DNA of 64,000 nucleotides from Candidatus Methanophagales archaeon (GCA_017883965.1 JAFNKG010000001.1:14893-78892), one strand, 5' to 3'. Shown: positions 2,217-51,578, numbered from the stretch's first letter. Made by a program: numbers and translations. The notes: a model not told the origin generated them from the letters alone.

Positions 2217-3692
2217 TTATCCCTCGCCGAAGAATCGCCTCATCGCTGGATACATCTCCATCATCTGCTCTGATGCCACGTCCTCATAAAGCCGGTAAGC
2301 AATGCTAACTGCCAGAAGTAAACCAGTGCCTGATGCACCTCCAAGTGTGCCCAGCATATCAGAAAATACGCACAAAACACCCAAAATAGCACCCCCCATT
2401 AGCGCTATTTTCGGTATATATCCCTCCATCATACTCTCTATCGTTGCCGGGCTCCTGCGATGCCCCGGTATTTGTAGCCCTGAGCGATGTATCTGCGATG
2501 CTACATCCTTCGCTCCCATTCCGGTCGTATTTATCCAGAATAGAGCGAATACCGCCCCACCTATGACCATAAAAGAAAGGTCAACAGCCAATCTCGTGGC
2601 AACTTGCCAACCCGCATAAGGTATTGTCATAAGCCCCGGGAACCAATCCCAGGGACCATACATGGGGTCGAGATAATACACCAAGCCTGATGCCGCAGTT
2701 CCGTATTCATCATACGTTCCGAATATAGTAATTCCACGGGAATGAAGCATTCGTCCAAAGCCCTGTATGCTCGCCTGCATCGCTCTCACGAGAATCATCG
2801 GAAGCACACTTGCGTATAACAGCTTAATTGGGAACCTGCCACGAGCACCTCTTGCCATCGAATGCGCTAACGGTATCTCTAAACGAGTGCTTTCGAGGTA
2901 AACAACGAGGAAAAAAACTCCGATAGTTGTTATAAGTGCGATTATGTGATGCTGGAAAAGAAAAACCATTCCTCCTTCCAATATCTCGTATGCGGGTACT
3001 TGCAACGGCGAACCCGGCAATAGTAACTGAATCCATCTGGGTATTACACCCACTGCCAATCCGAACTCGTCTGGCATCCAACCTATAAGCCCGGTAATTA
3101 ATTGTTTAGAGACACCCGCGATGATGAACAACGAAACGCCTGACCCTATTCCCCATTTTGATACCACCTCATCCATGAAGTATATAAGCATCCCGCCGAT
3201 GAAGATTTGAATGAAGAGCAGGAACGAGATGACCTGCAAAGATACACCGAGTTTATCTGCTATTCCCTGGTCAGGCACATAAAAGCCCACAACGTATGTC
3301 AAACTGATAAAAACCGAAAAGACCAAAACGAGCAGTTTCTGTAGGTTCTGATAAAACGCCTGGTCGCGGGGGTCGCTCAAGTTCAATTTTATTATTCCCG
3401 CGCCAACCAGAAGCTGTAAGACAATGGAAGCATCAACAATTGGCATGATTCCGAGAGCAGTTAATGTATATGTTTCACCCGCAAAAATTGCACGCCATCT
3501 ACCGAAAATATCTATTGATTGCTCAACATCCATCCCAAAGAGATAAACATTGCCAAGTGCGAAAAAGAGAACGAGTATGGCAATAGTCCAGCCTAACTTC
3601 GCTTTAAAATGAACGTGCCACCCAGGGCGTTCAACCATGGGGAATTTACTTAAAATCGGTGTTAATGCATCTCTTAATCTTATCTCGTTCAT
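2217..3692 (-). CDS. secY: preprotein translocase subunit SecY
   Basis: 491 aa polytopic membrane protein. Contains the SecY signature GIMPIVDASIVLQLL and sits directly downstream of rpl15, as in archaeal ribosomal operons. Confidence 0.9.
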   Translation of the reverse strand: MNEIRLRDALTPILSKFPMVERPGWHVHFKAKLGWTIAILVLFFALGNVYLFGMDVEQSIDIFGRWRAIFAGETYTLTALGIMPIVDASIVLQLLVGAGIIKLNLSDPRDQAFYQNLQKLLVLVFSVFISLTYVVGFYVPDQGIADKLGVSLQVISFLLFIQIFIGGMLIYFMDEVVSKWGIGSGVSLFIIAGVSKQLITGLIGWMPDEFGLAVGVIPRWIQLLLPGSPLQVPAYEILEGGMVFLFQHHIIALITTIGVFFLVVYLESTRLEIPLAHSMARGARGRFPIKLLYASVLPMILVRAMQASIQGFGRMLHSRGITIFGTYDEYGTAASGLVYYLDPMYGPWDWFPGLMTIPYAGWQVATRLAVDLSFMVIGGAVFALFWINTTGMGAKDVASQIHRSGLQIPGHRRSPATIESMMEGYIPKIALMGGAILGVLCVFSDMLGTLGGASGTGLLLAVSIAYRLYEDVASEQMMEMYPAMRRFFGEG

Positions 3693-18599: not shown

Positions 18600-19082
18600 A
18601 TGGCGGTAAAGTCTTCTGCGGATATAGCACGAATATTAAAAGAGAAATGGGATAGAAGCAAGGATAAGGAAGATTGGAGAGTGCTATCAGGACGGAATCC
18701 AAAAGGACGGTATGACATGTTCATCTCCAGCCCTGAGCGTCTGTGGCAGCTAAAAATCGAGCAGACGGGACGCAATGAGGCAATGGGATTTGGCCTGGAA
18801 GTAGGGAAAATAGAAGACGAGATAAAAGAGCTTATGGGGATAGGCGCTCCAGTCCCTTTTGGTTTGATTGCCCCTCAAAAAGCTGATTTAGCCATTATAA
18901 TGGCAGGTATTCAGCAATACTCTTCTGATTCGGCTTATACGCTCTGCAAAGAATATCTCTCAGAAAAGCAAGCGAAACTGGATGAGAAGTTGGACATGGA
19001 GATAGAGCGAATGAGAAGCGACCCCGTGTTAAGAAGAAGATATAAAGAGCAAAAAGAGCGGGAGAAAATCCCTTATTTGTGA
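18600..19082 (+). CDS. hypothetical protein
   Basis: 160 aa. Overlaps the downstream gene start. Confidence 0.45.
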   Translation: MAVKSSADIARILKEKWDRSKDKEDWRVLSGRNPKGRYDMFISSPERLWQLKIEQTGRNEAMGFGLEVGKIEDEIKELMGIGAPVPFGLIAPQKADLAIIMAGIQQYSSDSAYTLCKEYLSEKQAKLDEKLDMEIERMRSDPVLRRRYKEQKEREKIPYL

Positions 19083-19660
19083 TGGTTTTGCATGTAAATA
19101 AAAAGGGGATAAGAGTACTTGGTATTGCAGAAAGTTTCAAGAGAGCCTATGAAAAGTCAGTGCTTGCTGGCATCGTTATGCGTTCCGATTTCATTATAGA
19201 CGGTGTCGCTTTTGACTGTATAACCGTGGGGGGGATGGATGCCACCGAAGGAATATTGCACGTCTTCGATTCTCTTCAGCGAGATGATATAAACGTGATG
19301 ATGCTAAATGGATGCGTCATCAGCTGGTTCAACATTATAGATATAAATGAGGTTTACGAAAAACTGCGGATTCCTCTCATCTGCGTGACTTACGAGGAAT
19401 CCGAGGGTTTGGAAGAACATATAGCCAGGCATTTCGAAGCAAATGAGCGAGATTCACGGATAGAAGCATATAGGAGGCTTGAAAATCGTGTACCTGTGAA
19501 ATTACATGACAATTTCGAGATTTTAATACGATTTTTGGGTATGGAAAAAGCAGAAGCTGGTGCGGTGCTAAAAAAATTCACCTCTCACGGGAAAGTGCCA
19601 GAGCCATTAAGGGTTGCGAAGATAACAGCGAGGGCGGCACTCAAATATTCAGCGGGTTAG
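19079..19660 (+). CDS. DUF99-family (UPF0215-like) archaeal protein
   Basis: 193 aa. Start VLHVNKKGIRVLGIAESF and overall similarity to DUF99. Confidence 0.5.
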   Translation: MMVLHVNKKGIRVLGIAESFKRAYEKSVLAGIVMRSDFIIDGVAFDCITVGGMDATEGILHVFDSLQRDDINVMMLNGCVISWFNIIDINEVYEKLRIPLICVTYEESEGLEEHIARHFEANERDSRIEAYRRLENRVPVKLHDNFEILIRFLGMEKAEAGAVLKKFTSHGKVPEPLRVAKITARAALKYSAG

Positions 19661-19697
19661 CGTGTTGGTGGTTCAGCGGGTTAGCGTGTTGGTGGTT
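19650..19697 (+). repeat. tandem 24-bp direct repeat (cagcgggttagcgtgttggtggtt, two copies); left arm of an inverted repeat flanking the four-helix-bundle gene
   Basis: Exact tandem copies. The first copy overlaps the DUF99 gene stop codon. The inverse copy lies at 20083-20108. Confidence 0.8.
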
Positions 19698-20049
19698 TGG
19701 AATTTATTTTGGAGTAGAAGGAGGAGAGCATTTTTGAAAGTTCTTCTATCTTTGAAGATAAATTACTAAAGTTGTCTTCTTGAATAAAACCCAACTTATA
19801 CGAAATAATTATTTGTGTCTCCAACTCGGCACAAGAACCCCGAGCAATGGTTATAAATTGCTTAAAATCTTTTGCTGTTTTTCGCAAATGCCTTTCTGCA
19901 ATATTAGATGGAATAGAAACCGCTGCCCTTCTCATCTGCGTGCTTAAACCATATTTCTCTTCCTCTGGAAATGTGGCGGTAATTTTATAGACTATCTCTA
20001 CAAGTTCAATCCCTTTTTGCCACACTTTTAATTCCTTAAAACTCTTCAT
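19681..20049 (-). CDS. four-helix-bundle protein (23S rRNA intervening-sequence protein family, TIGR02436-like)
   Basis: 122 aa. KELKVWQKGIELVEIVYK...FPEEEKYGLSTQMRRAAVSIPSNIAE...ARGSCAELETQ matches this family closely. Confidence 0.8.
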   Translation of the reverse strand: MKSFKELKVWQKGIELVEIVYKITATFPEEEKYGLSTQMRRAAVSIPSNIAERHLRKTAKDFKQFITIARGSCAELETQIIISYKLGFIQEDNFSNLSSKIEELSKMLSSFYSKINSKPPTR

Positions 20050-20082
20050 CGTTAATCCTTCTTTTTCATTTATCTAAACCTC

Positions 20083-20108
20083 TGAACCGCTAACCCGCTA
20101 ACCCGCTA
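20083..20108 (+). repeat. right arm of the inverted repeat (gaaccgctaacccgctaacccgctat)
   Basis: Reverse complement agcgggttagcgggttagcgg matches the left-arm core. Overlaps the TFB stop codon. Confidence 0.75.
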
Positions 20109-21059
20109 TAAAAGCACGTCTATATCTAACTGCTCTGATAATTCTTTATATCTGTTCCGTATTGTAACCTCGGTCACACCCGTAACATCAGATACTTCCT
20201 TCTGTGTACGATGTTCACCGCTTAAAATTGCAGCGATGTAAATAGCAGCGGCTGCTATTCCTATCGGTCCTCGCCCGTTGGTCAGCTCCTTTTCCGTTGC
20301 TCGCTTTATTATCTCTATTGCTTTTGAGCTTATCTCACCACTCAAATCGAGCAGAGAGCAGAAACGAGGCACGAAGTCAACAGGAGAAGCAGGCGAAACT
20401 TTCAAGTCGAGCTCCCGTAGAAGAAAGCGATATGCGCGGCTTATTTCCTTCTGCCCAACTCTTGATATTTCCCTGACCTCTTCCAGCGTTCGCGGCACTC
20501 CATACTGCCTACAAGCAATATATAAAATCGCAGTGGTTATACCTTCTATGCTCCGCCCGCGAATCAACCGTTTCTTCATTGCCCTACGATATAACATAGA
20601 CGCCGCCTCGCGGATATTCATCGGCAGTCTAAGCGCACTTGCCATCCGGTCTATCTCGGAGAGCGCGAAAATAAAACTCCTTTCGGTTGTATTCGCAATG
20701 TGTGTCCGTTGTTGCCATTTCTTTAACTTATATTGTCCTTGACCCTGCAAACCCCATGTGACGAGCGTACTCAGTCCCTTGTCGTGTATTCGATACGTCA
20801 TCGGTGCTCCAACCCTCGCCCTTCTTGACGCTTGTTCGAAATCAAAAGCACGCCACTCAGGTCCAAGGTCAACAATGTTCTCTGCTATTACCAGCCCGCA
20901 ATCAGCACAAAAAAGCTCTGCTTTTCCATAATCTCTTACCAAACTCTTGGAGCCACACTCAGGACATTCTTTTACTTTCTCGCCTTCAGCAGTTTCGTCT
21001 TCATCACCTTCTTCCTTCTTATACTTCCCCTTTTCCTCATCACTCTCAGGGGTCACCAT
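20106..21059 (-). CDS. tfb: transcription initiation factor IIB (TFB)
   Basis: N-terminal zinc ribbon CPECGS...CADCG followed by two cyclin-fold repeats. Acidic N-terminal extension. Confidence 0.9.
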
Positions 21060-22747: not shown

Positions 22748-22820
22748 GGGCCCGTGGTCTAGTTGGAATGACGTCGCCTTGACGAGGCGGAGGTCATGCG
22801 TTCGAATCGCATCGGGCCCA
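22748..22820 (+). tRNA. tRNA-Val (anticodon GAC)
   Basis: Cloverleaf folds by hand. 7-bp acceptor stem GGGCCCG/CGGGCCC, anticodon loop UUGACGA, T-loop UUCGAAU. Confidence 0.85.
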
Positions 22821-22861: not shown

Positions 22862-22940
22862 CAAACTTTTTGCTTCGCAATTTAAAAGAAAGATTTGTTT
22901 TGAATTTTGAAACTATGATTTTGGATTTGTTTAGAGTTTA
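22862..22940 (+). repeat. T-rich conserved intergenic element (copy A) containing AAACTTTTTGCTTCGCAA...TTTGTTTTGAATTTTGAAA
   Basis: About 60 of 75 nt are shared with 47936-47995. The core aaactttttgcttcgcaa also occurs at 18455-18485. Confidence 0.6.
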
Positions 22941-22971
22941 GAAATTAAATTTTAGGATTTTCCGCACTTTA

Positions 22972-25500: not shown

Positions 25501-28119
25501 ATGACAAGCGGAAAGACAGAGGAAAAAGATACGATTTACCTTGTCCCACACACGCATTACGATGCCATCTGGGTATTCACGAAGGAGGACTATTTTTACA
25601 TCAATCTGATGCTTATTTTGAAGGAGGTAGTTGAGCTTCTTGAAAAGACGGATTACAAGTTCCTGATAGAGCAAACCTTTCTGCTGGAAGAGCTGGAGAT
25701 GCGGTATCCGGAACTATTCTCAAAGGTTGCGAAGTACATAAAAGAAGGAAAGATAGAGATCGCCGGCGGGGAATACCTGATGGCAGATACGATGCTTCCG
25801 AATGGAGAAACACTGGTAAGAGAAATCATGGTTGGTAAGAGATACGTGAAGGAGAAGTTCGGTGTTGACGTTCCGGTAATGTGGCAGGCAGACAGCTTTG
25901 GTTTGAATGCCCAGCTACCGCAGATATACAAAAAATCAGGCTACAAATATGTTGCATTCAGAAGGGGTACAGCGAAGAGAAAGCCGTCGGAATTTATCTG
26001 GCAGGGCTTGGATGGAACGGGGATTTTAGCACACTGGATGCTTCTTGGATACAGAGCAGGATTGGACTTGACACAGCTGGCGGAAAGCCATGATAAACTC
26101 AAGGAAGTCGCAGCAACTTCGCATATCTTGATGCCTTCCGGGAGTGGAGTTACGATGCCACAACCGGAAACGGTGGAAGTGGTGAAGGCGTGGAATGAGA
26201 AGAGAGGCGAAGTAGCGGAGATGAAAATTGCAACGCCGGGTGAATTCTTTGAAGCACTGGAGAAGGAAGTAGAAGACCTGAACCTTGAGGTGGAGGTAAG
26301 GAAGGGCGAGATGTATTCGGGGAAGTATTCAGAGGTGTTTCCAAATTGCTGCTCGAGCAGGATGTGGATAAAACAGGGGCTTCATGATTACGAGAGCTGG
26401 TTGTTGTGTTGCGAGCGATGGGGTGCAATATCCTATCTCTTGAGCGGCTACTATCCCTCTGATGAGTTCAGGGACTGCTGGCGTAAAAATTTGTTCATCG
26501 CATTTCATGATGTGGTTCCGGGGACAGGGATGGACCGGGGTTACGATGAGGCGAGGCAATATTTTGGCTTTCTCAAGACCAAAATGATAACACTCTGTCC
26601 TCGCATACTCTCTATGATAATAGAGGCTGAATCGGAGGAGGACGAAGGCGGAGTTGAAAGTGGGGATATAATTGTATTTAACTCGTTGTCGTGGGAAGTG
26701 AGGAACTGGATAGAGATGGAGTTGAACTTTGACAAAGGAAAAGTAATTGCGATTAAGGGATTGAAAAGCGGAGAAGAGGAAATAGATGTAGAGGTGATAA
26801 AATTTGCGAGGTATGAAGATGACTCGTTGAGGTCTGCGAAGATAGGATTTGTTCCCACGGTTCCTGCGCTGGGATATAAGCTGTATAGAATCCTTGAGCG
26901 TGCGCCGAAGCGGTATCGTTATGAGCCGAATTATATCATGATAAGAGGGAACACCATAGAAAATAGCTTCTTTGGGGTTGAGGTGGACCCTGCCACGGGG
27001 TTGGTTGACGTGATTCAAGGCGATAGGGAGAGGATTTGCACGGCGAATGAGCTTGTGCTGGAAGAAGAAACCGGCGACCTTTACTACCACCGGCAAACAT
27101 TGGACATCCCGTTGAAAACAGAGAAGGGAGAAGGAGTGAAGTATGGCTCGTTCAGGGTAGAGAACTTTTGGATAAATAAGAGTCCTTTGAGACGTGTTAT
27201 CAATGTCGAGACTAATTATTTTTCACTGCGCTGGCCGTACAGATTGACGGAGAAGATGGAGCCCCTTATATGGCGGCATAAATTCTTAGAGTGCAGAAAG
27301 AAAATAATAGTTTATAAGGACATTCCGAGGATAGATTTCATCACGCACGTAGAGGATAAGCATCCGAAGTCACGGCTCAGGGTCAGGTTCTCCACGGACA
27401 TAGAATCTTCGGCTTATTCCTGCGGTAGTCAATTTGGCGTTGTTTCCCGCCCGACAGACCAATGGAGCTATAAACCAGAAGAGGAGTGGGTTGAGGAGCC
27501 CTGTGGTGTATTTCCCTCGATAGGATGGCTTGATTATTCTGACGGAAAGAAGGGCTTGACCGTGATTCACAGGGGGATACCGGAGAACGAGGTAAGAGAT
27601 GGCGACATCTATTTAACACTGCTCAGAAGCGTTTTAATGCTCTCCTCGGATGGTAAGACAGGTCCTGCAATACCGGTTCCGAATGCGCAGGAGTTGAAAA
27701 GATACGTATTCCGATATTCCATTTACCCGCACGAAGGAGACTGGCGTGAAGCATCATCCTACAAGCATGCTTATGAGTTCAACTCCGATCTGGATGCAGT
27801 GCAATTGTCTGATGGCGTGAAACTACCTTTGAAACGGTCTTTTTTGAAAATAGAGCCGGAAAGTGTTGTTTTATCCGCACTGAAAAGGGCAGAGGATGGG
27901 GATGGGGATGGGGATAGAGTGATTATGAGATTTTATGAAACGAAGGGAAAAGAGACGAATGCTGAAATAACGCTGTTCAGAGAGCCAAAGGCAGTCAAGG
28001 TGGTGAACCTGCTGGAGGAAGATGACGAAGGAGTGGAAAAAGAGTTGAAAAAAGCGGGTGAGAGAATTGAGTTGAAGATGAAACCTTTTGAGATAGTTAC
28101 TTTGAAGATGCAACTTTAA
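25501..28119 (+). CDS. GH38-family alpha-mannosidase, copy 1 (candidate mannosylglycerate hydrolase)
   Basis: 872 aa. N-terminal YLVPHTHYDAIW, a GH38 signature. Lies immediately downstream of mpgSP. Confidence 0.85.
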   Translation: MTSGKTEEKDTIYLVPHTHYDAIWVFTKEDYFYINLMLILKEVVELLEKTDYKFLIEQTFLLEELEMRYPELFSKVAKYIKEGKIEIAGGEYLMADTMLPNGETLVREIMVGKRYVKEKFGVDVPVMWQADSFGLNAQLPQIYKKSGYKYVAFRRGTAKRKPSEFIWQGLDGTGILAHWMLLGYRAGLDLTQLAESHDKLKEVAATSHILMPSGSGVTMPQPETVEVVKAWNEKRGEVAEMKIATPGEFFEALEKEVEDLNLEVEVRKGEMYSGKYSEVFPNCCSSRMWIKQGLHDYESWLLCCERWGAISYLLSGYYPSDEFRDCWRKNLFIAFHDVVPGTGMDRGYDEARQYFGFLKTKMITLCPRILSMIIEAESEEDEGGVESGDIIVFNSLSWEVRNWIEMELNFDKGKVIAIKGLKSGEEEIDVEVIKFARYEDDSLRSAKIGFVPTVPALGYKLYRILERAPKRYRYEPNYIMIRGNTIENSFFGVEVDPATGLVDVIQGDRERICTANELVLEEETGDLYYHRQTLDIPLKTEKGEGVKYGSFRVENFWINKSPLRRVINVETNYFSLRWPYRLTEKMEPLIWRHKFLECRKKIIVYKDIPRIDFITHVEDKHPKSRLRVRFSTDIESSAYSCGSQFGVVSRPTDQWSYKPEEEWVEEPCGVFPSIGWLDYSDGKKGLTVIHRGIPENEVRDGDIYLTLLRSVLMLSSDGKTGPAIPVPNAQELKRYVFRYSIYPHEGDWREASSYKHAYEFNSDLDAVQLSDGVKLPLKRSFLKIEPESVVLSALKRAEDGDGDGDRVIMRFYETKGKETNAEITLFREPKAVKVVNLLEEDDEGVEKELKKAGERIELKMKPFEIVTLKMQL

Positions 28120-28147
28120 TAATAATTACAGGAGATTTAAATAAATC

Positions 28148-35705: not shown

Positions 35706-38321
35706 ATGGCAAAAGGGGAAACTACAAGGGGCGAAAAAGATACGATTTACCTCGTTCCACACACGCATTACGATGCCATCTGGGTCTTCACGAAGGAGGA
35801 TTATTTTCATATCAATCTGCTGCTTATTCTGAAGGAGGTAGTTGAGCTACTTGAAAAGACGGATTACAAGTTCCTGATAGAGCAAACCTTTCTGCTGGAA
35901 GAGCTGGAGATGAGGTATCCGGAACTATTCTCAAAGGTTGCGAAGTACATAAATGAAGGCAAGATAGAGATTGCCAACGGGGAATATCTGATGGCAGATA
36001 CGATGCTTCCGAATGGAGAAACACTGATAAGAGAAATCCTGGTTGGCAAGAGATACGTGAAGGAGAAATTCGGGGTTGACGTTCCGGTAATGTGGCAGGC
36101 AGACAGCTTTGGTTTGAATGCCCAGCTACCGCAGATATACAAAAAATCAGGCTACAAATATGTTGCATTCAGGAGGGGGGTAGCGAAGAGAAAGCCGTCG
36201 GAATTTATCTGGCAGGGCTTGGATGGAACGGGGATTTTAGCTCACTGGATGCCTTTAGGATACAGAGCAGGATTGGACCTGACACAGCTGGCGGAAAGCC
36301 ATGAGAAACTCAAGGAAGTAGCGGCGACCTCGCATATCTTGATGCCTTCCGGAAGTGGAGTTACGATGCCTCAGTCGGAAACGCCGGAGGTTGTGAAGGA
36401 GTGGAATGAGAATAACGGAGAATGGGCGAAGATTAAGATTGCAACGCTGAGTGAATTCTTTGAAGCACTGGAGAATGAAGTAGAAAACCAGAAGCTTAAG
36501 ATGGACGTGCGGAAAGGTGAGATGTATTCAGGGAAGTATTCCGAAGTTTTTCCAAATTGCTGCTCGAGCAGGATGTGGATAAAACAGGGGCTTTATGATT
36601 ACGAGACTTGGTTGTTAAGTTGCGAGCGATGGAGTGCAATATCTGCCATCCTGAATAGCCACTATCCATCAGAGGAGTTGATGAACTGCTGGCGGAAAAT
36701 TTTGTTCATCGCATTTCATGATGTAATTCCGGGAACAGGGATGGACAGGGGTTACGATGAGGTGAAGCAGTACATGAGCTTTCTCAAGACCGAGATGTCC
36801 ACCCACTGCCTTCGCGCACACACTCAAATAATAGAGGAGGAATCAAAGGAAGGCGAAGGCGAAGTTGAAAGCGGGGATATAATGGTATTTAACTCGCTGT
36901 CTTGGGAAGTGAAGAACTGGGTAGAGATGGAGTTGAATTTTGAGAAAGGGAAAATAGTAACGATTAAAGGCTTAAAGAGTGGAGAAGAGGAGATAGATGT
37001 GGAGGTGATAAAGTTTGCGAGGTATAAGGATGATTCGTTGAGGTCTGCGAAGATAGGATTTGTTCCCAAGGTTCCTGCGCTTGGATATAAGGTGTATAAA
37101 ATCCTTGAGCGTGAGCCGAAACGGTATAGTTATGACAAGAATTGTATCCTGATAAGAGGGAACACGATAGAAAATAGCTTCTTTGCGGTTGAGGTGGACC
37201 CAGCCACGGGGTTGGTTGACGTGGTTCAAGGCGATAGGAAGAGGATTTACACGGCGAATGAGCTTGTGCTGGAGGAAGAAACCGGCGACCTTTACTACCA
37301 CCGACAAACATTGGGCATCCCGGTGAAGACGGAAAAGGGAGAAGGGGTGAAGTATGGCTCGTTCAGGGTAGAGAACTTCGGGATAGCTAAAAGTTCTTTA
37401 AGGCGAGTTGTCAACGTCGAGACCAATTATTTCTCCCTGCGCTGGCCGTATAGATTGACGGAGAAGATGGAGCCAGTTATATGGCGGCATAAATTCTTAG
37501 AGTGCACAAAGAAAATAATAATTTATAAAGACATTCCGAGGATAGATTTCATCACGCACGTGGAGGATAAGCATCCGAGGGCACGGCTCAGAGTAAGGTT
37601 CTCCACGGACATAAAATCTTCGGAGTATGCCTGCGGTAGTCAATTTGGCGTTGTTTCCAGACCGACGGACCAAGCGAACTACAAGCCAGAAGAGGAATGG
37701 GTTGAGGAGCCCTGCGGTGCATTTCCTTCGCTGAGGTGGCTCGATTATTCTGACGGAAAGAAAGGCTTGACCGTGATTCACAGGGGGATACCGGAGAACG
37801 AGGTAAAAGATGGTGACATCTATTTAACACTGCTCAGAAGCGTTTTAATGCTGTCCTCGGATGGTAAGGCAGGTCCTGCGATACCTGTTCCGAATGCGCA
37901 GGAGTTGAGAAGATACGAATTCCAATATTCCATTTACCCGCACGAAGGAGACTGGCGTGAAGCATCATCCTACAAGCATGCTTATGAGTTCAACTTCGAT
38001 CTGGATGCAGTGCAGTTGCCGAAAGGCGTGAAACTACCTTTGAAACGGTCTTTTTTGAAAATAGAGCCGAAAAATGTCGTTTTATCCGCACTGAAAAAGA
38101 CAGAGGATGGGGATGGGGGAGTGATTCTGAGATTTTATGAGACGAAGGGGGAAGAGACGGATGCTGAGATATCACTGTTCAAAAAGCCAAAGGCAGTCAA
38201 GGCGGTGAATCTGCTGGAGGAAGAGGACGAAGGAGTGGAAAAAGAGTTGAAAAAAGCGGGAGATAAAATAGAGTTGAAGATGAAACCCTTTGAGATAGTT
38301 ACTTTGAAGGTGAACATTTAA
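35706..38321 (+). CDS. GH38-family alpha-mannosidase, copy 2
   Basis: 871 aa, about 88% identical to copy 1 over the full length. Confidence 0.85.
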   Translation: MAKGETTRGEKDTIYLVPHTHYDAIWVFTKEDYFHINLLLILKEVVELLEKTDYKFLIEQTFLLEELEMRYPELFSKVAKYINEGKIEIANGEYLMADTMLPNGETLIREILVGKRYVKEKFGVDVPVMWQADSFGLNAQLPQIYKKSGYKYVAFRRGVAKRKPSEFIWQGLDGTGILAHWMPLGYRAGLDLTQLAESHEKLKEVAATSHILMPSGSGVTMPQSETPEVVKEWNENNGEWAKIKIATLSEFFEALENEVENQKLKMDVRKGEMYSGKYSEVFPNCCSSRMWIKQGLYDYETWLLSCERWSAISAILNSHYPSEELMNCWRKILFIAFHDVIPGTGMDRGYDEVKQYMSFLKTEMSTHCLRAHTQIIEEESKEGEGEVESGDIMVFNSLSWEVKNWVEMELNFEKGKIVTIKGLKSGEEEIDVEVIKFARYKDDSLRSAKIGFVPKVPALGYKVYKILEREPKRYSYDKNCILIRGNTIENSFFAVEVDPATGLVDVVQGDRKRIYTANELVLEEETGDLYYHRQTLGIPVKTEKGEGVKYGSFRVENFGIAKSSLRRVVNVETNYFSLRWPYRLTEKMEPVIWRHKFLECTKKIIIYKDIPRIDFITHVEDKHPRARLRVRFSTDIKSSEYACGSQFGVVSRPTDQANYKPEEEWVEEPCGAFPSLRWLDYSDGKKGLTVIHRGIPENEVKDGDIYLTLLRSVLMLSSDGKAGPAIPVPNAQELRRYEFQYSIYPHEGDWREASSYKHAYEFNFDLDAVQLPKGVKLPLKRSFLKIEPKNVVLSALKKTEDGDGGVILRFYETKGEETDAEISLFKKPKAVKAVNLLEEEDEGVEKELKKAGDKIELKMKPFEIVTLKVNI

Positions 38322-38328
38322 TTCAATT

Positions 38329-51338: not shown

Positions 51339-51430
51339 TGATAAAAATCCCAACCGTTATAGCCAATAGCAAGGTAGCCAATAGCCAAATAGGGAACATA
51401 CCTATCTTGAATTTGTCATATTTAAAATTT

Positions 51431-51550
51431 ACCGCAGAGAACGCTGAGTTCACAGAGAAAATAAGGGGTTAGTTGTCTGGTATTAGTAACCCTAAAACCT
51501 AAACCTCTAAACCTACACCCTCTGCGTTCTCCGTGAACTCTGCGGTTAAT
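51431..51550 (+). repeat. nested inverted-repeat element (CCGCAGAGAAC/GTTCTCTGCGG family) with an inner GGGTTA...TAACCC hairpin; probable bidirectional terminator or structured RNA
   Basis: accgcagagaacgctgagttcacagag pairs imperfectly with ctctgcgttctccgtgaactctgcgg. The related motif cccgcagagaacacagagag occurs at 10473-10499. Confidence 0.5.
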
Positions 51551-51578
51551 CTGACAATGTCAAGCTATTCCTCATTGG

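Follow-up and report, generated by a model that had tools for sequence, protein, structure and literature searches.

How does a gene of the family named after the intervening sequences (IVSs) of bacterial 23S rRNA come to lie in an archaeal genome between a DUF99 gene and tfb, framed by repeats that run into the stop codons of both neighbours? A first-pass annotation of a 64-kb stretch of DNA from a Candidatus Methanophagales archaeon, a member of the methane-oxidising ANME-1 (the window, by which we mean the whole stretch), had pointed to this arrangement and had suggested that an IVS-like cassette had been transplanted or that a small mobile element had inserted itself. To our knowledge, the 23S rRNA IVSs that carry an open reading frame (ORF) have gone unexplained for about 30 years, and we know of no function for the large S23p family. 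The IVS of Coxiella contains an S23p ORF, and its terminal inverted repeats form a stem of 28 bp; next to the start codon lie tandem heptamers, 2 or 3 of them depending on the strain; RNase III cuts in the stem, the ORF is decaying and its protein is seemingly unexpressed (PMC4990558). In ORF-containing bacterial IVSs more generally, decay of the ORF is frequent, horizontal acquisition has been inferred and a mobile element long suspected (PMC4990558).

Comparing the locus with its relatives in archaea and bacteria, we conclude that positions 19648-20108 are probably an IVS-type selfish cassette, made of a PF05635 gene, a short leader and two inverted tandem-repeat arrays, and acquired from bacteria (Table 1). 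The rRNA IVS and the protein family were already known; the new element is an archaeal, non-rRNA relative of the ORF-bearing IVS with flanking arrays. A literature search for flanking arrays of free-standing family members, or for any archaeal case, returned nothing beyond papers on rRNA IVSs and on diversity-generating retroelements (DGRs).

Table 1. The cassette and the two genes that enclose it, in window coordinates
Feature	Position	Strand	Description
Endo_dU/DUF99	19079..19660	+	convergent with the cassette; the array supplies its last three codons and stop
3' terminal array	19648..19697	-	sense CCACCAACACGCTAACCCGCTGAA x2, six degenerate 8-nt units of CTAAACCG type
IVP cassette gene	19681..20049	-	122 aa, PF05635 / TIGR02436 four-helix-bundle family ("23S rRNA IVS protein", S23p)
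Leader	20050..20073	-	short, conserved, ..TAGATAAATGAAAAAGAAGGATTAACG-ATG; from the alignment of copies
5' terminal array	20074..20108	-	sense TAGCGGGTTAGCGGGTTAGCGGTTCAGAGGTTTAG, 8-nt units of GCGGTTTA type
tfb (TFIIB)	20106..21059	-	co-directional and directly adjacent on the upstream side; the 5' array begins with its stop codon

The cassette gene and its repeats in the window

The assignment of the protein to the 23S rRNA IVS family, made in the first-pass annotation, is borne out by PF05635 (23S_rRNA_IVP; E-value of 1e-40 and 138.7 bits for a cut-off of 33.8) and by TIGR02436 (130.2 bits for a cut-off of 24), and the protein also matches PDB 2GSC (E-value of 2e-27). The AlphaFold model (pLDDT 92) places helices at residues 8-24, 35-55, 59-85 and 91-114, with TM scores of 0.91 to 2GSC (XCC0516), 0.77 to 2RLD (BT_0352) and 0.77 to the Avd protein bAvd (4DWL), and the predicted fold is an up-down four-helix bundle like that of XCC0516 and BT_0352. 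At position 53, which is a glycine in 97% of 120 homologues, the window copy has an arginine (G53R), so that NIAER stands in place of the near-invariant NIAEG motif; the copy lacks this mark of the family and its membership by homology stands. Its reading frame is intact. The substitution may have inactivated or impaired the protein, and the window copy may be heading for decay as in its relatives, about half of all copies being decayed by stops, frameshifts or deletions.

The leader of the window copy is a short variant. In most other ANME-1 copies, the 5' array is separated from the ORF by a further module of about 43 nt, whose TATA-like box (TTATAA) precedes the ATG by about 30 nt, and the window leader does not contain this module; the cassette gene of the window is for this reason most likely transcribed by read-through from tfb.

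The repeats had been described as a tandem pair on one side of the gene and an inverted copy on the other. Both elements are present: the left flank (19648-19697) contains an exact 24-nt tandem duplication (TTCAGCGGGTTAGCGTGTTGGTGG x2.1, 100%), the right flank (20087-20108) contains CCGCTAAC x2.8, and the arms 19651-19684 and 20074-20107 are inverted over 34 nt with 85% complementarity. The repeat itself had to be redefined: the 24-mer and the 20-mer belong to two arrays, inverted with respect to each other and built from a degenerate unit of 8 nt, of GCGGTTTA type upstream and TAAACCGC downstream of the gene, and once related loci are compared, the duplicated 24-mer of the window is clearly a three-unit duplication inside such an array. 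The units are contiguous, without spacers, and the cassette read inward from either end presents the same sequence of GCGGTTTA-type units. Within the 64-kb window, the core 12-mer AGCGGGTTAGCG is confined to the cassette, with four occurrences for 0.16 expected by chance, and this number was reached in none of 100 shuffles. The arms had also been proposed to pair into a long stem with the gene in the loop, and folding agrees with this proposal: the predicted fold of 19640-20115 closes the ends of the cassette and beats the shuffles on the + strand (z of -6.45) and on the sense strand (z of -2.98), the antisense strand being better folded than the sense strand in the window. Rfam found two tRNAs elsewhere in the window and no rRNA, a sensitive Rfam scan of the locus gave nothing at the cassette, and PADLOC produced no match and with it no assignment to a defence system.

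The neighbours of the cassette gene in the window encode a MobA-like NTP transferase, a protein without Pfam match, Endo_dU, TFB and RNase HII. The position of the gene between DUF99 and tfb, with repeats overlapping the stop codons of both, is confirmed by the coordinates, and the overlap extends to the stop of the IVP gene itself. All three stops fall inside repeat units: the DUF99 stop (TAG, 19658-19660) within the 3' array on the opposite strand, the IVP stop (TAA, 19681-19683) within the same array, and the tfb stop (TAG, read as CTA on the + strand) at 20106-20108. The last seven or so codons of the cassette gene (SKPPTR and the stop) are made of array units, the C-terminus reading ..SKINSKPPTR before the stop. 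With an idealised array of period 8, each of the three frames meets a stop within 25 nt, whichever the direction. In the window, the tfb-side array closes all frames within 19 nt and the DUF99-side array closes quickly only the frame in use. The description of the arrays as universal stop-codon traps is accordingly retained as an inference only: it is true of an idealised array and of the tfb side of the window, and only partly true of the DUF99 side. As a separate observation, the arrays change the C-termini of neighbouring genes, including here that of the general transcription factor TFB.

Relatives of the cassette in ANME-1 genomes and in bacteria

The top 43 matches of the protein all come from ANME-1/Methanophagales-type assemblies (78-100% identity). 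Two observations had been named beforehand as evidence against a cassette, namely the occurrence of the repeat as a generic intergenic motif and the existence of related archaea carrying the gene without it. In 314 kb of ANME-1 DNA, the unit arrays were near-exclusive to the gene and its remnants, which they adjoin, the exceptions being one solo array and one weak match. Both arrays flank every ANME-1 copy retrieved, and no archaeal copy devoid of them was found among these related copies. Across ANME-1 genomes, copies of the cassette are located at no fewer than seven distinct gene junctions: locus A is the tfb/DUF99 junction of the window (including L001 and L002), locus B lies between TruD and NTPase_1 (L003-7) and five further junctions were recovered. 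Three metagenome-assembled genomes (MAGs) have two cassette copies each; in the 64-kb window, none of the other cassette-bearing junctions (TruD/NTPase and others) is present. All seven junctions separate convergent (tail-to-tail) genes, and at each of them the stops of the two host genes lie within or at the arrays. The length of the arrays is highly unstable: homologous 3' arrays vary in length between L001, L002 and L003, the genes of L001 and L002 are 99% identical and their arrays differ by six units, those of L088 and L096 differ by 9 nt, and among all copies the number of units in an array goes from 2 to above 12 and does not favour five.

Using the DUF99 protein for a metagenome scan, we recovered 27 tfb/DUF99 junctions, which display a whole range of states. 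Intact cassettes occur in the orientation of the window and flipped (L105/106, L099 and, from the earlier set of ANME-1 copies, L014), others are pseudogenes with a frameshift or a stop (L090/91), and internally deleted remnants of 233, 108 and 69 nt keep their arrays. The spacer of L094/95 is reduced to 9 nt and corresponds to exactly one unit, AGCGGTTTA, and the empty junctions have unrelated spacers of 32-73 nt. In the DUF99 tree (neighbour-joining on short sequences and without support values, as is the cassette gene tree), no cassette is present in the basal clade, further empty sites branch from among carriers, and all states occur intermingled in the crown group. Locus B presents a similar series, with a full cassette (L003), arrays only (L149), a decayed copy (L150), an inverted copy with an internal deletion (L151) and an empty junction at which the two gene ends overlap (L152). 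Comparison of these junctions shows that the cassette has been gained or lost, flipped, and degraded to its arrays or to a single unit at one and the same place. The presence of both orientations at two independent junctions would be the expected product of recombination between inverted arrays.

Signs of selection were sought in the ORF. Among 11 intact ANME-1 copies, the median dN/dS is 0.14, a ratio that shows purifying selection to have acted on the intact copies and implies that the protein matters when intact. Divergence at synonymous sites is uneven along the locus: between the window and L001, dS is 0.145 for the cassette (95% bootstrap interval 0.07-0.23) versus 0.56 (0.48-0.67) for the three flanking genes, two intervals that do not overlap, and the nucleotide identity profile rises stepwise inside the cassette. 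The cassette dS was 2 to 4 times below that of the flanks in four of six comparisons (L001, L002, L012 and L096), and no difference was seen in the two others (L010 and L106). Such heterogeneity is easier to reconcile with the cassette having been exchanged recently between some lineages than with a synonymous constraint acting uniformly, and the low values could come in part from constraint on synonymous sites. The gene tree does not follow the locus either: the window copy clusters with those of two other junctions, to which it is about 92% identical in nucleotides, versus 86-89% for copies at its own junction. Taken together with the constant association of gene and arrays, the comparison of junctions shows that the two are inherited and relocated as one unit.

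Copies at different loci are at best about 92% identical in nucleotides; none that we found was near-identical to another, so that nothing points to a very recent transposition. The cassette encodes neither a transposase nor a recombinase, and we know of no cognate transposase for it. No target-site duplication was recognisable when full and empty sites were compared at both junctions, the empty sites being those of diverged lineages. The search of viral contigs gave no relatives, and no vector was identified.

After the ANME-1 clade, the best matches of the protein are found in Patescibacteria (60-66% identity), and there the gene has an array on either side, the two being inverted and built from a similar unit, TTAGCTCG/CGAGCTAA, also of period 8. 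The similarity of the arrays implies that the whole cassette was transferred and not the gene alone. Judged by this kinship of genes and arrays, the cassette is shown to have entered the ANME-1 lineage from bacteria. The claim that the family is normally found inside rRNA IVSs or DGRs has to be restricted: among the nearest homologues the genes normally stand free, none of the 20 bacterial loci containing rRNA, and no DGR is present here. With at least seven loci in ANME-1 genomes, presence and absence, inversion and decay at two of them and Patescibacteria as the closest outside relatives, the original suggestion of an IVS-like cassette or small mobile insertion is supported.

A genome scan supplied 75 loci for scoring, 11 from ANME-1 and 64 from bacteria (Bacteroidota, Balneolaceae, Anaerolineae, Nitrospirae, Desulfobacterota, Cloacimonetes, Rickettsiales and cyanobacteria). 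The complementarity of the 5' and 3' flanks exceeded that of all 30 shuffles in 55 of the 75 loci (49 of the 64 bacterial ones), with a median score of 32 versus 14-16 in controls. The best array period was 7 or 8 and the units were lineage-specific (e.g., TAGGGTA, GAGTAGT, TTGTATA or GGGGTTA). The two arms co-vary, the 5' array scoring a median of 31 with its own 3' array versus 15 with those of other loci; at a minority of bacterial loci, the arrays are direct and not inverted. Bacterial copies often lie within operons, between co-directional genes, with the array reaching the ATG. In Bacteroidota, the cassette keeps one operon position in different genera, ahead of a thiolase gene, a constancy that speaks for long residence or domestication more than for frequent movement.

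Known elements, proposed mechanism and competing explanations

The closest parallel to the cassette is the 23S IVS of Coxiella burnetii (S23p) or Leptospira, in which a PF05635 protein is also encoded by an ORF of about 120 aa inside terminal inverted repeats. Short tandem repeats of variable number lie in the arms of both the cassette and the Coxiella IVS, with a unit of 8 nt here and heptamers in Coxiella. Unlike an rRNA IVS, the cassette of the window is found in an archaeon, between DUF99 and tfb and not in helix 45 of the 23S rRNA, and the ANME-1 arrays are longer, have an 8-nt unit and overlap three stops, most copies having in addition an archaeal TATA-like box. The cassette thus combines predicted stem-forming terminal repeats and variable tandem repeats, both typical of IVSs, with a location outside 23S rRNA. 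Excision by RNase III at the stem is a feature of the bacterial IVSs, and for the cassette of the window such processing is putative. The free-standing bacterial TIGR02436 genes (XCC0516, 2GSC; BT_0352, 2RLD) are alike in sequence and fold, in their inverted arrays of 7-8 nt and in their protein-coding neighbours, and differ in that the sequence of the unit changes with the lineage. Avd is a pentameric scaffold that binds nucleic acid and the reverse transcriptase (RT) in the DGR ribonucleoprotein. It has the same four-helix-bundle fold (bAvd 4DWL; DGR ribonucleoprotein 8UB7; TM of about 0.75-0.77), but the cassette protein is only 11% identical to bAvd, falls short of the curated Avd models and has no RT, TR or VR nearby. 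Finally, the cassette shares with MITEs and other TIR transposons a short length, inverted ends, multiple copies, presence polymorphism, remnants and an intergenic position, so that it has both the inverted termini and the multi-locus presence/absence distribution of such elements. It differs from them by its conserved non-transposase ORF and by ends that are variable tandem arrays and not fixed TIRs.

In the mechanism that we favour, the two arrays would pair, either at the RNA level, in transcripts that read through the cassette, or at the DNA level, in single strands or cruciforms, and this pairing would bring the ends of the cassette together. By analogy with the Coxiella stem, the array stem may be cut by RNase III in bacteria, with the consequence that the cassette would be tolerated inside 23S rRNA or between the genes of an operon. 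The period-8 units of ANME-1 carry TAG inward and TAA outward, and an intact array could in this way close any frame within about 25 nt; because frames would be closed so quickly, an insertion flush against two gene ends would cost few C-terminal codons. The inverted arrays would also be a substrate for inversion in place and for array expansion and contraction, and relocation between junctions would take place at the DNA level, probably via a host recombination function, perhaps guided by a pentameric Avd-like protein through putative binding to the repeats. In most copies, the TATA-like box lies between the 5' array and the ORF, so that their own mRNA would be devoid of the 5' arm. Pairing of the sense-strand RNA is not favoured: over the loci, the duplex energy was better for the sense strand in 26 and for the antisense strand in 46. 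The antisense bias arises because the tail of the ORF avoids TAA in the first 3' units, and the energy test consequently does not discriminate.

The most conservative alternative to a selfish cassette is an ordinary resident host gene that does not move, with repeats acting as terminator or insulator hairpins and with the other copies as old, vertically inherited paralogues. Such a gene would explain why every ANME-1 copy lies between tail-to-tail genes, a place at which one expects terminators, and would agree with the purifying selection on intact copies, with the single operon position across Bacteroidota genera and with the copies at loci B and C, which partly cluster by locus. It accounts poorly for the empty, full, inverted and decayed states that coexist among close relatives at two junctions, for a cassette that has diverged less than its flanks in four of the six dS comparisons, for a window copy that is nearer to copies at other loci than to those at its own, for an array unit common to the nearest bacterial homologues and for the half of the copies that are dead; it is thereby disfavoured, and we regard it as improbable. 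The derivation of the gene from a DGR, as a remnant or as its accessory gene (Avd), is very unlikely. The fold match to 4DWL (TM of 0.77) and the weak matches to PF22296 (bAvd-like, 27 bits), to NF033474 (29 bits) and to the PHROG "Avd protein of DGR" (E-value of 2e-10) point in that direction. However, both curated models remain below their cut-offs (40 bits for PF22296 and 80 bits for NF033474), no reverse transcriptase was found among the window neighbours or the listed genes of related loci, a repeat search of 19400-20400 gave no TR/VR-like long direct repeat, and the identity to bAvd is the low one given above. As for repeats arising from chance or composition, or mini-CRISPR-like arrays unrelated to the gene, we give this reading practically no credence, even if a CRISPR-discovery study names "23S rRNA IVP" among array-linked proteins (PMC10910872), a listing that is possibly due to these very arrays of 7-8 nt. 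It is refuted by the excess of the motif in the window, by arrays that are specific to the cassette across the 314 kb of ANME-1 DNA and by arms that stay matched across lineages, to which the contiguity of the 7-8-mers and the negative PADLOC result can be added.

The remaining alternative is a sub-hypothesis of the selfish cassette and differs from the mechanism outlined above in which molecule matters: the arrays would act mainly as DNA, as terminal inverted repeats composed of iterated sites for the pentameric protein of the cassette, which would synapse the ends so that a host nuclease or recombinase could invert, excise or transpose the cassette. We consider it possible but rather doubtful. 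The identity of both ends read inward, as in transposon ends, argues for it, as do the two orientations at two loci, the cassette's own promoter inside the 5' arm in most copies, a pairing without sense-strand bias and the structural homology of the protein to Avd, the nucleic-acid-binding pentamer of DGRs. Against it, the binding to the units is putative and drawn from this analogy, the number of units shows no preference for five, a minority of bacterial loci have direct instead of inverted arrays, and the RNA stem of Coxiella is a demonstrated substrate of RNase III in an IVS with a seemingly unexpressed protein (PMC4990558). A more general proposal, which we hold to be unlikely, is that PF05635 genes with their arrays form a widespread, undescribed mobile class, spread over many bacterial phyla and brought by transfer into ANME-1, whose pentameric Avd-like protein would recognise its own iterated units of 7-8 nt, as RNA or single-stranded DNA, and join the ends for inversion, excision or relocation without a conventional transposase.

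Seen across the locus and its relatives, gene and inverted arrays are a single evolutionary unit that moves between genomic sites, has crossed from bacteria to archaea, flips in place and decays, and whose repeat unit shifts between lineages while both arms stay matched; the rRNA IVS thereby becomes a particular landing place for a cassette of a general kind. Should the widespread mobile class exist, the classical ORF-bearing rRNA IVSs would be the subset that landed in rRNA, and a protein joining its own repeat ends would represent a mechanism of mobility or maintenance that dispenses with a conventional transposase. Populations of ANME-1, together with tractable Bacteroidota in which this architecture is also present, offer systems for testing protein-repeat recognition and mobility. 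On the practical side, arrays of this kind can mislead repeat and CRISPR finders.

Recurrent positions of the cassette and residue 53 of its gene

In Bacteroidota and Balneolaceae, two conserved operon positions hold the cassette (the gene of the 23S rRNA IVS protein, or IVP, family with its flanking inverted arrays) repeatedly, as seen at the bacterial loci L022-L024 and L082; L030, L033, L036, L048, L058, L081 and L084. One of these positions lies between the gene of an ABC-transporter ATPase and that of its permease, and the other directly upstream of a thiolase gene (MKTAYIV..). Such recurrence points to target specificity or, alternatively, to a long-term residence of the cassette. The copy in the window carries a G53R change at codon 53 (19891-19893), inside the near-invariant NIAEG motif; of 120 homologues, 97% carry glycine here, as do all the other ANME-1 copies. 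The '23S rRNA IVP' also figures among the CRISPR-array-linked proteins of a large CRISPR-discovery screen (PMC10910872), where the array finders could have been detecting the 7-8-nt tandem arrays which flank the cassette.

Insertions, replacements and a solo array at related junctions

Some of the related copies at DUF99/tfb junctions carry insertions. In L088 (~2960-3112), and in the matching region of L096, an insertion of ~150 nt with the terminal inverted repeats CAGTACTTCCGAA...TTCGGAAGTACTG sits between the cassette leader and the 5' array; it is apparently a nested MITE within the cassette. In L099, whose copy is in inverted orientation, the cassette ORF is broken by an A/T-rich insertion of >100 nt (~3285-3450). 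At the same junction in L089 (993-1139) and L092 (1903-2060), the place of the cassette is taken by a different ORF-less hairpin element of 147-158 nt, built of CCAAAT-like units. In L003-L007, the loci with the TruD/NTPase_1 junction, the GARS/purD gene carries at its 3' end (1361-1395) a solo array of the 5' type, GTTAGCGGTTTGGAGGGTTAGAGGTTTAGATAA, behind which the cassette gene is absent.

Other repeats in the window

The window contains, in addition, a nested hairpin without an ORF (-70.9 kcal/mol, z -5.8), which may be a relative lacking the ORF, or a remnant. In both direct-repeat pairs the members are 10.2 kb apart, which indicates a duplicated multi-gene block. The 32-nt tandem repeat is found closely downstream of a tRNA gene (22748-22820).

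Repeat features of the window outside the cassette
Feature	Coordinates	Remarks
ORF-less nested hairpin	51339-51578	intergenic, ABC-2/CcmB-like permease gene / topoisomerase gene
Heptamer arrays (ATAGCCA x4)	51359-51388	within the hairpin
Inner inverted repeat CCGCAGAGAACGC.. / ..CTCTGCGG		within the hairpin
AACCTAAACCTCTAAACC	51488-51521	within the hairpin; likeness to the cassette's 3' units
Direct-repeat pair	25522-25821 / 35733-36032	94% identity
Direct-repeat pair	27917-28120 / 38119-38322	89% identity
32-nt tandem repeat x2.2	22892-22960	A/T-rich, internally palindromic TTTAGAAATTTAGAAACTAAATTTTAG
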